Shown here: in pieces, positions 9,851 to 13,258 of the stretch
Position numbering within the stretch: position 1 is the first letter of the stretch
Layout: each line of letters begins with the position of its first letter
DNA from: a virus
Strand: one strand, 5' to 3'
UHGV virus genome: UHGV-0122684
DNA length: 17,890 bases
Made by a program: the position numbers and the translations under genes
The notes under the pieces: generated by a model
The model's input: only the letters and a program-made list of their open reading frames with translations
Database searches by the model: none
What the model was told of the DNA's origin: nothing

Positions 9851-10096
9851 TTATTCCTGTGGTTTTATGTCTGTACTAACGCCTGTACAGTTCGAATAGC
9901 GATGTGGATAAAGGATTTCTAGCTCATTGATTTTTCCCGAGAAGAAACGGACTAGACGTTCAGCAATATCTAGGGAAGCAATTTGCTGCCCTCGCTCTAT
10001 CCGACTTAGATTTCCCGGGTCGATATCAACCCCTTTTGCTACATAGGAAAGAGTCATACCTTGCGATTTACGCAAGATTCGTAACGGTGATTGCAT
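9851..10096 (-). CDS. cro: Cro-like repressor (XRE-family HTH)
   Basis: 81-aa ORF divergent from cI, with perfect SD AAGGAGGG upstream of the ATG at 10094-10096. HTH segment QGMTLSYVAKGVDIDPGNLSRIERGQ. Confidence 0.8.
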   Translation of the reverse strand: MQSPLRILRKSQGMTLSYVAKGVDIDPGNLSRIERGQQIASLDIAERLVRFFSGKINELEILYPHRYSNCTGVSTDIKPQE

Positions 10097-10193
10097 ATAC
10101 CCTCCTTTAATTGCGTAAAACGCATATTAATTGGAACATACGACTTGCGCAAGTTGCTTTGCACATCACGCAAAAAAAACATGTAATAGACGC
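10097..10193. promoter_or_regulatory. OR-like operator/promoter region (divergent pR and pRM candidates, repressor operators)
   Basis: Inverted repeats with TTGCG/CGCAA half-sites: TTGCGTAAAACGCA (10111-10124), CTTGCGCAAG (10145-10154), TTGCACATCACGCAA (10159-10173). Candidate pR on the minus strand is TTGCGC (plus 10147-10152), 17-nt spacer, TAATAT (plus 10124-10129). Candidate pRM on the plus strand is TTGCAC (10159-10164), 17-nt spacer, TGTAAT (10182-10187), ending 6 nt before the cI ATG, which implies a leaderless cI mRNA as at lambda pRM. Confidence 0.6.
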
Positions 10194-10886
10194 ATGAACA
10201 TAGGAAACCGCATAAGAGAACTTCGCACTGCGAAGGGTCTAAAAATCGCTGATCTTGCTGAAGCCGTTGGTGTCGACGGAGCGAACATCTCGCGCGTAGA
10301 AACCGGCAAACAGAAGTCATTTACTGAACAATCACTTAGCAAATATGCTCAAGCTTTAGGCGTTAGCGTTGCTGATCTATTTACTCCAGAAGGAAATAAA
10401 ACTACTGTATGTGAATACAGTGGTAGTAACCCACATTCTGGAGATGGATCTGTGTTTAGAGTGGAGATTCTTGATGTAAGTGCCAGCGCTGGTGGTGGAT
10501 TTATTCAAGGCAGCGATATTATTGATGTCATCAGGTCAATCGAATACAACAATGAACGTGCACTAGCGATGTTCGGCGGAAGAACGGCAGATCAAGTAAA
10601 AGTAATCAACGTTCGAGGCGACAGTATGGCTGAGACAATTGAACCTGGTGATCTTCTCTTCGTTGATATCTCTATTCATGAATTCGATGGTGATGGAATA
10701 TATGTATTTGGTTTTGATGATAAAATTTACGTCAAACGATTACAGATGATACCTGATATGTTGTTGGTTATATCGGATAACCCAAAATATAGAGAATGGT
10801 CTGTGGACGAGACAAACGAACACCGTTTTTACATTTTTGGGAAAGTAATGATAAGCCAATCTCAATCATTCAAACGCCACGCCTGA
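10194..10886 (+). CDS. cI: CI-like repressor (N-terminal XRE HTH, C-terminal S24 LexA-like autopeptidase domain)
   Basis: Translation from the ATG at 10194: MNIGNRIRELRTAKGLKIADLAEAVGVDGANISRVETGK (HTH), with C-terminal VRGDSM (Ser nucleophile) and VKRL (Lys) motifs of RecA-stimulated self-cleaving repressors. The ORF-track version starts at an upstream TTG (10131) inside the operator region, which is unlikely to be the real start. Confidence 0.9.
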   Translation: MNIGNRIRELRTAKGLKIADLAEAVGVDGANISRVETGKQKSFTEQSLSKYAQALGVSVADLFTPEGNKTTVCEYSGSNPHSGDGSVFRVEILDVSASAGGGFIQGSDIIDVIRSIEYNNERALAMFGGRTADQVKVINVRGDSMAETIEPGDLLFVDISIHEFDGDGIYVFGFDDKIYVKRLQMIPDMLLVISDNPKYREWSVDETNEHRFYIFGKVMISQSQSFKRHA

Positions 10887-10906
10887 CACTACATATCAAT
10901 GTTGAA

Positions 10907-10930
10907 ACCGCCTTTACGGCGGTTTTTTTA
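10907..10930 (+). terminator. rho-independent terminator downstream of cI
   Basis: AACCGCC-TTTAC-GGCGGTT hairpin followed by an 8-T run, 20 nt after the cI stop. Confidence 0.65.
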
Positions 10931-10937
10931 CGTCTCA

Positions 10938-10993
10938 ATATTGCGCAATTCGCAATTTAATACTTGCGTAAATCGCAATTTAATTTTATTGTC
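10938..10993 (+). promoter_or_regulatory. OL/pL-like operator-promoter block
   Basis: The same TTGCG/CGCAA half-site palindromes as in OR: TTGCGCAA (10941-10948), TTCGCAA, CTTGCGTAAATCGCAA (10963-10978). Candidate pL on the plus strand is TTGCGT (10964-10969), 17-nt spacer, TATTGT (10987-10992), reading into the early-left region. Hexamer assignment is tentative. Confidence 0.45.
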
Positions 10994-11962
10994 TACTCCA
11001 TAGCGAACAGGCAGGACGCCAACGAAGTAGCCGCCGGTGGCGTATGAATAACCGGATGATTCGCACGAGACATGGCGAAAGCCGAAAGACTTGAAGGCGT
11101 TTTTCTCAGGTTGCGCGCTAAAGCATAGCGGGGAGAACCTGGGGCGGTGAGCAAACCCCGCGGGGCAGGACGTGGAAATTGTCTGCACATACCAATAAGC
11201 CGTCTGGCAGCGTAACTGCCCTTTACATCTGCCCCGGCGAGGTGGCGCCGCCAAACCGGGGTAGATGAATCGTAAAGGTGTCTTCGGGAGGGGTTACGGG
11301 CTGGAGTGACTACCAGCATCGACAGCTCTATCCGACGAAACGGAACCGTCTAACCCGCGGTTGTCGGTGAAAAGTACCGTAGGGATGCCAGCTAGTCACT
11401 GGCCCCCGCCCGAAGATACCTACCACCGCGCCTGATGTGGTTAAAAGCAGGCCAAAGCAATAACAAGTACTTCCCTGTTCTGGCGGCCCGGTGTTTTCCC
11501 GTTTGTCCGGTAACCGCCAGCCTTTTTCAGGGAATATCAGCCGGTCATGGTAAGCATCTCGCAGGATTCTTACCGGGACTGGAAGAGTTACCACTTGGAG
11601 ACGGTCCTTATAAATGTCCTGGACAGTGGCGGTACCAGCACCGACAACAGCGGCAGACGTTTAACTGTGAAAACGGAGAGATGCCAGCTCCCTCGACGGC
11701 AGTGACGGCGGGAAGTAGAACGCTGACAGCAGGGAAAGACCTGCACAGGCCAGACGATATCTGAGCGCCTTTAAAAACAGATGGGAGTCGGTGGAAGCCC
11801 GACACACAACAGAAAAGGGCATCACCGGGCGACGGGCTCATAATCCAATCCACCCGGGCAAAAGAAAGCGGTCTCTGCAAACCGCCGACCAATGCAGGTG
11901 CCCTTCTCTGTTGTGTATGGAGAAAGTTCGGCGGTTGCAGCCGCCTTAACGAGGGTAAAACC
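10994..11962 (+). other. GC-rich, ORF-poor stretch of about 950 bp (candidate structured leader or non-coding RNA)
   Basis: Between pL and the first convincing early-left gene the plus strand has a single ORF of 60 aa or more (109 aa, composition not protein-like). The minus strand carries several overlapping Arg/Pro/Ser-rich ORFs in different frames, typical of GC-rich non-coding DNA. Many GC-rich inverted repeats (for example GGGGCGGTGAGCAAACCCCGCGGGG, CCCCGGCGAGGTGGCGCCGCCAAACCGGGG, GGCGGTTGCAGCCGCC). GC content is visibly higher than in flanking genes (by eye, not computed). Confidence 0.35.
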
Positions 11963-12334
11963 ATGAGTAATGACCGCATGACCGTAGTGCCAGATTTTCT
12001 TGGCGAACTGGATGCCGGCGTGTTCATGAACAAAATCGCGGCAGCACTTAATACCACCGCGCTTGGCGTTCTGAACAACGGCAACAAAGGCAAAGTAGTC
12101 CTCACCTTTGATTTTGAGCGTATGGGTAATTCCGTTGAAGAGAAGCGCGTCAAGATCAAGCACAAGCTGAACTACAGCACCCCGACACCGCGTGGTAAAG
12201 CCTCCGAGGAGGACACAACCGAAACCCCGATGTGGGTCAACAAAGGCGGGAAGCTCACCATCCTGCAGGAAGATCAGTGCCAGCTGTTCGGGATCACTGG
12301 CGCGGTGGATGGAAAGCTTAAAGCGGCTCAGTGA
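11963..12334 (+). CDS. hypothetical early-left protein (YfdP-like by position and size)
   Basis: 123-aa ORF with SD GAGGGT upstream. It is the first gene of the plus-strand early operon. The YfdP-like label rests only on size and synteny recalled for E. coli CPS-53, not on sequence comparison. Confidence 0.6.
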   Translation: MSNDRMTVVPDFLGELDAGVFMNKIAAALNTTALGVLNNGNKGKVVLTFDFERMGNSVEEKRVKIKHKLNYSTPTPRGKASEEDTTETPMWVNKGGKLTILQEDQCQLFGITGAVDGKLKAAQ

Positions 12335-12390: not shown

Positions 12391-13218
12391 ATGTCTCAGT
12401 TAGACAGCGGTACATTTCAGCAGGTAAAAGACCTGGTCCTTTCTGGCTACCACCTGAATGATATTCATGGCCTGGCTTGCCCGACCGCATTGCTGCCAGA
12501 TGGTACTAGCGTTGAAAGCCTTGAGCGCTTTTCTCTGGAGCGTTTCCGCTTCCGTGGTGCAATGACAACAACCAGTATTGACGATTTCGCACGTTATTCT
12601 AAAGGTTACGCCAGCGCCAGCGAGCCAGCCCGTTGCTTCATTGACGCTGACAACATGACCGCTCGTTCAGTGTTCAACATCGGCACCCTGGATAATCCCG
12701 GTCACGCCGATAACGTTGCTTCAATCACCCTGAAGAAAACCGCCCCGTTCCGCGCGCTATTGCAGATCGATGGTCAACGCCTGAAGCAAAAGCAAATCGC
12801 CGAATGGCTGGAAGACTGGAGCGATTACCTCCTGGCGTTTGATGCTGATGGCAATACGATGCAGATTTCCCAGGCTGCTCAGGCTGTGCGTCGTATCACT
12901 ATTCAGCAAGCAACACAGCAGGACCATGAAACTGGTGATTTCGCTGGTAAAAAATCGCTGATGCAAAGCGTTGAAGCAAGCAGCAAAGACGTAATGCCTG
13001 TGGCGTTCGAGTTCAAATGTGTGCCATATGAAGGTCTGGGCGAACGCCGCTTTAGCTTGCGTAACAGCCTGCTGACCAGCGATGAACCCTGCTTTGTTCT
13101 GCGCATCGTCCAACTTGAAGCCCAGGAAGAAGAGATCGCCAACGAATTACGCGATTTGCTGATCAGCAAGTTCGAAGGTGAATCAGTGGAAACTTTCATC
13201 GGTAACTTTAAAGCCTAA
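12391..13218 (+). CDS. hypothetical protein (YfdQ-like by size and synteny)
   Basis: 275-aa ORF with SD AAGGA upstream. Size and position before an HD-domain gene match the yfdQ-yfdR arrangement I recall in E. coli CPS-53; not verified by sequence comparison. Confidence 0.7.
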   Translation: MSQLDSGTFQQVKDLVLSGYHLNDIHGLACPTALLPDGTSVESLERFSLERFRFRGAMTTTSIDDFARYSKGYASASEPARCFIDADNMTARSVFNIGTLDNPGHADNVASITLKKTAPFRALLQIDGQRLKQKQIAEWLEDWSDYLLAFDADGNTMQISQAAQAVRRITIQQATQQDHETGDFAGKKSLMQSVEASSKDVMPVAFEFKCVPYEGLGERRFSLRNSLLTSDEPCFVLRIVQLEAQEEEIANELRDLLISKFEGESVETFIGNFKA

Positions 13219-13230
13219 TTGCTCTGCATT

Positions 13231-13258
13231 AAATCCCCGGCGCCGCGGGGATTTATTG
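13231..13258 (+). terminator. intra-operon terminator-like GC hairpin
   Basis: AAATCCCCG-GCGCCG-CGGGGATTT (9-bp stem) followed by ATTTATT, 12 nt after the stop of the 275-aa gene and before the HD-domain gene. Confidence 0.45.

Follow-up and report, generated by a model that had tools for sequence, protein, structure and literature searches.

How does RNA polymerase reach the early-left genes of a lambda-like prophage that lacks N? The question is raised by a stretch of 17,890 nucleotides (nt) of UHGV virus genome UHGV-0122684 (hereafter, the window), in which 969 bases (positions 10994-11962) lie between the predicted leftward promoter, pL, and yfdP, the first early-left gene. This region forms the 5' untranslated leader of the early-left (pL) operon in a lambdoid prophage of the ST64B/SfV type, and it is non-coding, folded as plus-strand RNA, modular and conserved. 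It opens with a 66-nt element, termed here block A, which is the best candidate for terminator read-through in N-less lambda-like phages. Block A is followed by variable cassettes, a predicted intrinsic terminator, a short module C and, next to yfdP, a three-way junction termed module B.

No N gene was found in the window, nor in ST64B, SfV, phiNP, mEp460 or 689R6. An earlier note on this DNA had reported that the early-left operon has no N-like gene, and PHROG scans agree: none of the tested early-left and early-right open reading frames (ORFs) gave an N-like match (integrase, excisionase, exonuclease and others were found). The N-less lambdoid phages include ST64B, the serotype-converting Shigella phages SfII, SfIV and SfV, phiNP of Citrobacter rodentium, LLS and mEp460, and "put-like" expression of their early-left genes has only been guessed at, in a 2025 paper. 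For LLS, in which N is absent, the authors propose that a put-like mechanism "may" apply (PMC12315714). Block A provides a concrete and mutable candidate for early-left read-through, with 66 nt, defined helices and invariant loops, and it is found from Escherichia to Xenorhabdus. In addition, a modular RNA leader lies where annotation shows either nothing or spurious ORFs, and its units recur in virulent phages and beside phage tRNA genes.

A conserved two-helix RNA at the 5'-end of the leader

Block A (11001-11066, plus strand) is recognised by covariation and by a covariance model, R1, with which it scores 86.8 bits. An outer helix, P1, pairs 11003-11007 with 11060-11064 and is extended to up to 7 bp in relatives; nested inside it, P2 pairs 11034-11038 with 11051-11055. 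The internal loop of 26 nt is near-invariant, AGGCAGGACGCC(A/C)ACGAAGUAGCCG (AGGCAGGACGCCCACGAAGUAGCYG), the 12-nt loop of P2, GGCGUAUGAAUA, is conserved, and the 3' linker is AUGA. In an alignment of 57 sequences (A2), 89.9% of the cells pair, and P1 alternates between GC, UA, CG and AU pairs. The covariation score was 0.54, as against 0.137 for shuffles (0/500) and at most 0.12 with slid partners; the G.U pairs are compatible with the plus strand only. The genome loci were chosen by an exact match to part of the core, but contigs retrieved through YfdP were not (80 IMG/VR contigs with a near-identical YfdP), and these show the same conservation.

With one genome scanned per species, the exact 22-nt core was found in 48 stretches from about 40 species, in genera that include Enterobacter, Citrobacter, Yersinia, Serratia, Pantoea, Erwinia, Xenorhabdus and Photorhabdus. 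Of 5426 complete E. coli genomes, 236 (about 4%) contain block A, and it is annotated in none of them. Model R1 detects a single copy in the window, the pR operon having none; of 50 further loci, 36 have a full copy, and at no locus was the element found twice. Block A is always the first block of the leader, and the only element common to all these leaders. In the window and in most relatives, the predicted start site of a sigma-70 promoter under repressor control lies 2-6 nt before block A; sigma-70 promoters, scoring at least 9 of 12, were found in 79 of 121 distinct upstream regions, as against 13 of 121 shuffled ones. The -10 hexamer ends 7 nt 5' of block A here and mostly 10-13 nt 5' of it in relatives, and block A is therefore the 5'-end of the transcript. 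Thus, block A is an RNA of two helices, the long unpaired segments of which are near-invariant; each prophage has one copy, and the element is conserved across Enterobacterales. It is missing from Rfam and from genome annotation; no description of it or of the other leader elements was found in Rfam, RefSeq annotation or the searchable literature, and it is apparently undescribed. The idea of a riboswitch was dropped, as the sequence that follows P1 differs between leaders and forms no consistent expression platform.

A second sub-family of block A was observed at loci L098, L100, L102, L104, L110, L123, L129, L131, L141, L094, L121, L134 and L137, with a different covarying P1 (GUCAUC/GAUGAC, CCACC/GGUGG), different operator types and a conserved 3' extension, ACGCGCAGCAGGUUCAACGUUCCGCCAGCC. 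At most of these loci, the next feature is a conserved ORF of 40-45 amino acids (MIDFARKPVR...LAQKG; phrog_31129, function unknown).

A tentative role for block A in read-through

The earlier note had offered three explanations for the region as a whole, an RNA-based antitermination element, a large structured non-coding RNA or a decayed acquired insert. RNA-based antitermination is the leading idea here for the first 66 nt only, and it is the context of block A that suggests it. Because the transcript is untranslated over 0.4-1.9 kb, with terminators before the first gene, the leader would need protection from both intrinsic and Rho-dependent termination; block A is the candidate antitermination element because it alone is common to all leaders and occupies the position of putL and nutL.

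Inside the leader of the window, a nested CUGGCGG...CCGCCAG hairpin (11479-11527, plus strand; -19 kcal/mol) followed by one C and UUUUU is a predicted intrinsic terminator, with a GC-rich hairpin and then a U-run, and many relatives have this terminator module immediately 5' of module B. In 62 of the 67 distinct leaders, five or more consecutive T residues stand directly 5' of module B, preceded, as judged by eye, by a terminator-like hairpin; pL transcripts must therefore pass this site to reach yfdP. A consensus boxA (GCUCUUUAACAA) lies 3' of block A in 12 of 113 leaders, and in most of those 12 it forms a discrete module, about +84 after block A, in which a hairpin (AAAAGCGCCC-N4-GGACGCUU) is followed by consensus boxA GCUCUUUAACAAUC. 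Moreover, the mEp collection was isolated as Nus-dependent phages (PMC11893012), and mEp460 appears, by name, to be a member. Both this Nus-dependence and the occasional boxA point to antitermination. The leaders with boxA include those of L111, L116, L119, L127, L133, L135, L088 and L058; that of L133 has boxA without the hairpin, and that of phiNP shows a looser match.

We favour, with somewhat more doubt than confidence, the reading that block A is a cis-acting, nut/put-like element that carries RNA polymerase through a long, untranslated and terminator-bearing leader, the long stems of which are sites of processing or stability. When repression lifts, RNA polymerase would start at pL and transcribe block A first; the folded element, alone or with host elongation factors, would stay on the elongation complex in the manner of put or nut/boxA. 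The complex so modified would resist intrinsic terminators and Rho over the roughly 0.4-1.9 kb of leader without ribosomes, and the excess of G over C and high degree of pairing of the leader would also deny Rho a loading site. The long, near-perfect stems of cassette 2 and of module B would be double-strand-specific processing or stability sites, as are those for RNase III in the lambda N leader and in T7, and cleavage would separate the ribosome-binding site of yfdP from the leader. Should block A modify RNA polymerase, enteric phages would have just two classes of RNA that do so, and the element would be a compact new part for the synthetic control of read-through. In its most specific form, which we consider doubtful, the reading holds that block A represents a new class of processive antiterminator RNA, acting in cis and without structural relation to put or to the Bacillus EAR. 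Transcribed as the first 66 nt from pL, it would load onto the RNA polymerase of the host in N-less prophages of the ST64B/SfV/LLS type throughout Enterobacterales, and the protected leader would be a slot for exchangeable RNA cargo, including a mimic of the anticodon arm of the initiator tRNA (see below).

Several observations weigh against a role in antitermination. Block A is not a put RNA, as established by covariance models run in both directions and by BLAST searches with putL (see also below), and, whereas put has a copy in the pR operon (putR), block A has no such counterpart. The gene that comes first after block A in Xenorhabdus and Photorhabdus codes for a basic protein of about 123 amino acids with a weak match to phrog_271 (N-like), and at some loci a boxA-like sequence lies between the two; because an N-like gene follows it there, block A is not a simple substitute for N. 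In the window and in three relatives, module C replaces the terminator 5' of module B. Counted with a crude detector, terminator-like sites within 1 kb after block A amount to 0.98 per leader, as against 1.02 on the opposite strand. P1 of block A measures only 5 bp in the window. Finally, a nuclease, CsrA-type proteins (by way of two GGA motifs) or the ribosome would be equally plausible partners of the invariant loops.

Indeed, block A may instead be a post-transcriptional 5' element that binds a conserved host factor (protection from RNase E/RppH, CsrA, Hfq/ProQ, or the 30S ribosomal subunit) and sets the stability or translation of the early-left mRNA, not termination. The extreme 5' position of block A in the transcript would suit such a role, as would its presence once per prophage, in the left operon only, its coexistence with the N-like genes (and, at some loci, the boxA-like sequences) of Xenorhabdus and Photorhabdus, and a pair of motifs with GGA about 40 nt apart (AGGAC, placed in a small hairpin by prediction, and GGAUGA). 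Direct control of translation is unlikely, however, as the first gene is 0.4-1.9 kb away and differs between phages, and about 40 invariant unpaired nt far exceed what a protective hairpin or a CsrA site needs. We regard this alternative as rather unlikely.

Module B and the yfdP-proximal end of the leader

Module B (11804-11916, plus strand) is a three-way junction with a P1 of 19 bp (11804-11823 with 11897-11916), a P2 (11825-11829 with 11853-11857) and a variable P3. Across an alignment of 28 sequences (A3), 97.1% of the cells pair, with compensatory changes in 16 of 28 pairs; P1 is 96.6% paired, and 24 of the 28 sequences retain a U.G wobble. The covariation score, 0.226, compares with 0.099 for shuffles (0/500) and with at most 0.071 for slid partners. 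A single design is common to the 67 distinct leaders, namely a long hairpin with conserved base CACAACAG...CUGUUGUG followed by a tail, UAUGGAGAAA, a small hairpin and a ribosome-binding site, and the segment at 11917-11962 is kept in nearly all of them. In the window, this conserved segment (plus strand) consists of the tail, AUGGAGAAAGUUC, the hairpin GGCGGUUGCAGCCGCC at 11930-11945 and GAGGG at 11951-11955, ahead of the yfdP AUG at 11963. Across 11917-11965, GUG UAU GGA ... CCA UGA could be read as a tiny upstream ORF that ends in an AUGA overlap with the yfdP start; its frame and length vary between variants and it was not treated as coding. A small upstream ORF starting from the AUGGAG tail was likewise rejected, since frames and stop codons vary between variants, as seen by eye. 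The hairpin-plus-tail design of module B also occurs elsewhere: a long hairpin and UAUGGAGG precede each of the N-like genes of Xenorhabdus and Photorhabdus. These code for two types of protein of about 123 amino acids that share the C-terminus CC(M/L)..ALYSTKTK (L108, L113, L114, L125, L126, L128 and L095).

The insert of module B is of at least four unrelated types. The P2 tip is GGG-CUCAUAA-UCC in the window (11834-11846) and typically GGG-CUCAUAA-CCC for this type of insert. Most variants of module B have 14 identical nt (CGGGCUCAUAACCC) in common with the anticodon arm of the initiator tRNA, tRNA-fMet, a match that was checked against 5426 E. coli genomes; the window matches at 13 of the 14 positions, with a single C-to-U change that retains a G.U pair. 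The mimicry extends to just three base pairs of the arm, and variants differ at the last two positions of the loop. Module-B-like junctions with a GACGGGCUCAUAACCCAA tip were observed directly 5' of the gene for tRNA-Arg(UCU) in L205 (6896-7069) and just 3' of that for tRNA-Thr(UGU) in L148 (7689-7845), a location that hints at a link with tRNA-type processing.

A second alternative is that the leader is an array of RNA cargo, from which processing would yield stable trans-acting RNAs; the tRNA mimic in module B, for instance, could be a decoy or competitor for VapC-type anticodon nucleases or for factors that bind the initiator tRNA. The 14 nt identical to tRNA-fMet in most variants are the most conserved part of module B, units like it adjoin tRNA genes (L205 and L148) and occur in the leaders of phages 9NA and SopranoGao, and the interiors of the cassettes (see below) are exchanged as cargo would be. 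However, loop positions 37-38 vary (AA, UA, UC), and ARAGORN finds no tRNA or transfer-messenger RNA in the window, and no tRNA gene at the module B positions of six scanned contigs, so that a tRNA gene is not what module B represents. The identity over 14 nt is a post hoc observation, and the invariance of the anticodon stem-loop in pattern-searched loci is in part forced by the pattern. We therefore judge this alternative improbable.

A mosaic of exchangeable modules

BLAST searches resolve the leader into a mosaic of short blocks, 75-98% identical to sequences in very different phages, and among the YfdP-linked contigs the same blocks are present, absent or reordered, and between about 390 and about 1860 nt separate block A from yfdP. 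The same slot holds small genes (morons) in some relatives, orf33 in SfV and ORFs in mEp460, 689R6, YeP1 and AH07. Even a phage with a YfdP 99% identical to that of the window (L020, IMGVR_UViG_3300009092_000441) has a leader that matches the window only over two short blocks, with 86-94% identity. The leader is thus built from independently exchangeable plus-strand RNA modules. Of the explanations first put forward, the single large structured RNA was right as to structure and conservation, but the region is a tandem array of independently shuffled modules of variable length; a decayed acquired insert is at odds with modules that remain 75-98% identical across many phages, with compensatory base changes.

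Block A is followed by cassette 1 (11067-11276, plus strand), which is predicted to form hairpins, among them CAUCUGCCCCGG...CCGGGGUAGAUG, and shows 79-92% identity with phiNP and about 15 IMG/VR leaders, with a different order in L009; a weak terminator-like site followed by U5 spans 11062-11099 (plus strand). Cassette 2 (11277-11420, plus strand) is a long multi-branched hairpin, closed by a helix of 16-17 bp between GGUGUCUUCGGGAGGGG (11277-11293) and CCCCGCCCGAAGAUACC (11404-11420). This helix is kept in 17 distinct variants, around at least two unrelated interiors; the Erwinia copy (L136) has compensatory changes in it, and its G.U wobble fits the plus strand only. One or more further cassettes with predicted hairpins (cassette(s) 3; 11533-11746, plus strand) follow the terminator at 11479-11527, and the segment at 11534-11631 is common to mEp390, Salmonella PAT1 and Klebsiella phages.

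Module C (11747-11803, plus strand) consists of CCAGACGAUAUCUGAG...GGGA followed by a hairpin, GUCGG (11787-11791)-UGGAAGC-CCGAC (11799-11803). Intergenic leaders of the virulent-type siphophages 9NA, SopranoGao, DS8 and phi_KPN_H2 match it with 85-90% identity, and its hairpin covaries, with GUCGG/CCGAC in the window, GUAGG/CCUAC in 9NA and GCCGG/CCGGC in SopranoGao. In SopranoGao (Klebsiella; L007 2100-2700) and 9NA (Salmonella; L008 2400-2640), module C is followed by long hairpins with base CAACAG...CUGUUGUG. These units are intergenic and located just 3' of promoter-like sequences; in SopranoGao two of them, each with module C and hairpin, stand in tandem within a long GC-rich leader of its own, and in 9NA GUUGUG overlaps the annotated GTG start of gp42.

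The arms of the long hairpins also behave as inverted repeats at the DNA level, and the interior can flip across them: a 71-nt insert between the arms is flipped in L085/L087 relative to L063/L064 (L063 2841-2960 versus L085 2841-2960), agreeing with the reverse complement at 70 of 71 nt and with the direct sequence at only 10. A third alternative is thus that the inverted arms act as DNA, as recombination linkers or as invertible or mobile cassettes that drive mosaicism, the RNA folds being a by-product. This would account for modules that are shuffled, reordered and swapped between phages and for the inverted insert between identical arms (L085 versus L063), and the arm ends ACACAAC...GUUGUGU may loosely resemble the cores of integron attC sites. 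But the conserved G.U and U.G wobbles would be A.C mismatches on the other strand, compensatory changes maintain pairing despite sequence drift, the flanks of the units are conserved, unlike the insertion sites of transposons, and their orientation is always that of pL transcription. The idea of a miniature inverted-repeat transposable element or an attC site was set aside for the conserved flanks, the fixed orientation and the strand-specific wobbles, and we find an origin of the folds at the DNA level quite improbable.

Composition, coding potential and folding

GC content, computed per region, was 0.562 (56.2%) in the leader (10994-11962), as against 0.413 (41.3%) in cI (10131-10886), 0.346 in the pL/operator region (10887-10993) and 0.509 (50.9%) in yfdP-yfdQ, which bears out the earlier claim that it is higher than in the flanking genes. 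The 969 bases (A250 C258 G287 T174) are purine-rich on the plus strand.

The sole plus-strand ORF of the leader, of 109 amino acids (11435-11764), is open in none of seven homologous leaders and its substitutions are spread evenly over the three codon positions (53/41/53); three minus-strand ORFs are likewise not kept open and show no codon-position bias. For yfdP, used as a control, the substitutions number 417/238/2398 by codon position, and the gene is open in 94 of 96 homologues. None of the leader ORFs (all six were scanned) has a Pfam match, and a few have weak PHROG matches, to families of unknown function. One of these, to phrog_3651, by a minus-strand ORF (11608-12165), falls on the nucleotide-conserved module B, and this ORF, open in 22 of 81 homologues, was rejected as a hidden gene. 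The view that the plus strand has no credible ORF over about 1 kb thus stands, as the ORF of 109 amino acids is neither conserved nor biased in the third position, and no conserved coding ORF was found across homologues on either strand. That the region hides small protein genes or decaying acquired DNA, as the small ORFs annotated between block A and module B in relatives and the weak minus-strand PHROG match might suggest, is a most remote prospect, with no ORF of the window kept open or third-position-biased, the PHROG match lying on module B and the modules conserved with covariation.

The 963-nt leader folds at -374 kcal/mol, as against -341 +/- 9 kcal/mol for shuffles (z -3.6), in agreement with the richness in inverted repeats first noticed by eye. 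The minus strand gives a similar z, -3.9; because the wobble pairs fit the plus strand, the plus-strand RNA is the folded species. With Rfam 15, no match was found at the gathering threshold in the whole window, and only chance-level ones at E up to 10 (10700-12300). Of the checks that the earlier note had proposed, the Rfam search therefore gave nothing relevant, while the comparative analysis revealed compensatory changes in block A, module B and cassette 2.

The early-left locus

The prophage is lambdoid, with an S24-type cI repressor gene at 10131-10886 (plus strand). As identified by PHROG scans of the tested ORFs, cro, cII-like, O-like and Q-like genes are on the minus strand; 3' of the leader, the plus strand carries yfdP, yfdQ and genes for a dNMP phosphatase and an exonuclease, followed by xis and int. 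PHROG and Pfam scans assign the first two early-left genes to the YfdP family (11963-12334, plus strand) and to YfdQ/DUF2303 (12391-13218, plus strand). A CCGCC-UUUAC-GGCGG hairpin followed by U7 (10908-10929, plus strand) forms an intrinsic terminator 3' of cI, and SfV is annotated alike. The predicted pL (plus strand) has a -35 element, TTGCGT (10964-10969), a 17-nt spacer and a -10 element, TATTGT (10987-10992); with its operators it spans 10941..10992, and transcription probably starts near 11000. Three copies of an operator-like sequence, TTGCG-N5-CGCAA, are present in the window (10061-10075, 10941-10955 and 10964-10978), as against 0.07 expected; the copy at 10061-10075 lies inside the 5' part of a predicted cro-like ORF (9851-10096, minus strand), not upstream of it.

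The terminator-like hairpin that had been noticed at 13231-13258 (plus strand) exists, between yfdQ and the next gene, with a 9-bp stem (AAAUCCCCG/CGGGGAUUU), but its U-tract, UUUAUU, is weak and it failed a stricter terminator filter. The order cI, terminator, a gap of 0.8-1.3 kb, yfdP and yfdQ recurs in phiNP (Citrobacter), ST64B (Salmonella), SfV (Shigella) and mEp460_4F5 and 689R6 (both E. coli), and in these five the gap between the cI terminator and yfdP is un- or sparsely annotated. The mosaic leader is common to lambdoid phages of the ST64B/SfV/phiNP/LLS/mEp460 type, in a fixed layout of cI, terminator, pL, leader, yfdP and yfdQ.

Comparison with known systems

The put RNA of phage HK022 suppresses pausing and termination by binding the zinc-binding domain of the RNA polymerase beta' subunit, without a protein factor. 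Like block A, it is a folded RNA of roughly 65-75 nt at the 5'-end of the pL transcript of an N-less lambdoid phage, upstream of terminators and restricted to enteric hosts, and block A shares the placement directly downstream of the pL start. The two differ in fold: put consists of two side-by-side stem-loops, whereas the helices of block A are nested, with P2 inside P1. A covariance model of put, R2, was built from six putL sequences and scored 90 bits with HK022 putL and 35 bits (E 1e-7) with putR, on which it had not been trained. It gave no match at block A in the window, ST64B, SfV, phiNP, YeP1 or AH07; conversely, R1 matches no put RNA, and a BLAST search with putL matches no phage with block A.

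The layout of the window is that of lambda nutL, with pL, a 5' RNA signal, a long structured leader and a long hairpin before the ribosome-binding site of the first gene. The nut system consists of an Arg-rich N, boxA, boxB and a rightward copy, none of which the window has: no boxA (CGCUCUUUA-like) was found in its leader, nor a boxB hairpin, with its 5-bp stem and purine-rich pentaloop, in the window, P2 of block A having a stem of 5 bp but a loop of 12 nt. The lambda pL leader (L262 643-689, minus strand) starts with AUCAGCAGGACGCACUGACCACCAUGAAGGUGACGCUCUUA and has, as seen by eye, CAGCAGGACGC and a hairpin with an AUGAA loop in common with block A; as a relative of block A it was rejected (4.3 bits with R1, not significant), and the resemblance may be a relic or due to chance.

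The rrn leader (boxB-boxA-boxC with Nus factors) is likewise part of a long, untranslated and highly structured transcript that is protected from Rho and from terminators. The order of hairpin and then boxA, as in the rrn leader, is found only in those relatives that have boxA; boxA is absent here, and block A has no counterpart in rrn. For the long stems, the comparison is with the RNase III sites of the lambda N leader and the T7 early region, near-continuous stems of about 20 bp, a description that fits both P1 of module B (19 bp) and the closing helix of cassette 2 (16-17 bp). Finally, antiterminated polymerase reads through the morons of lambdoid phages (Hendrix). Block A and module B flank a cargo slot of a similar kind, and in some phages it holds small genes with terminators of their own, whereas in the window the cargo is non-coding structured RNA.

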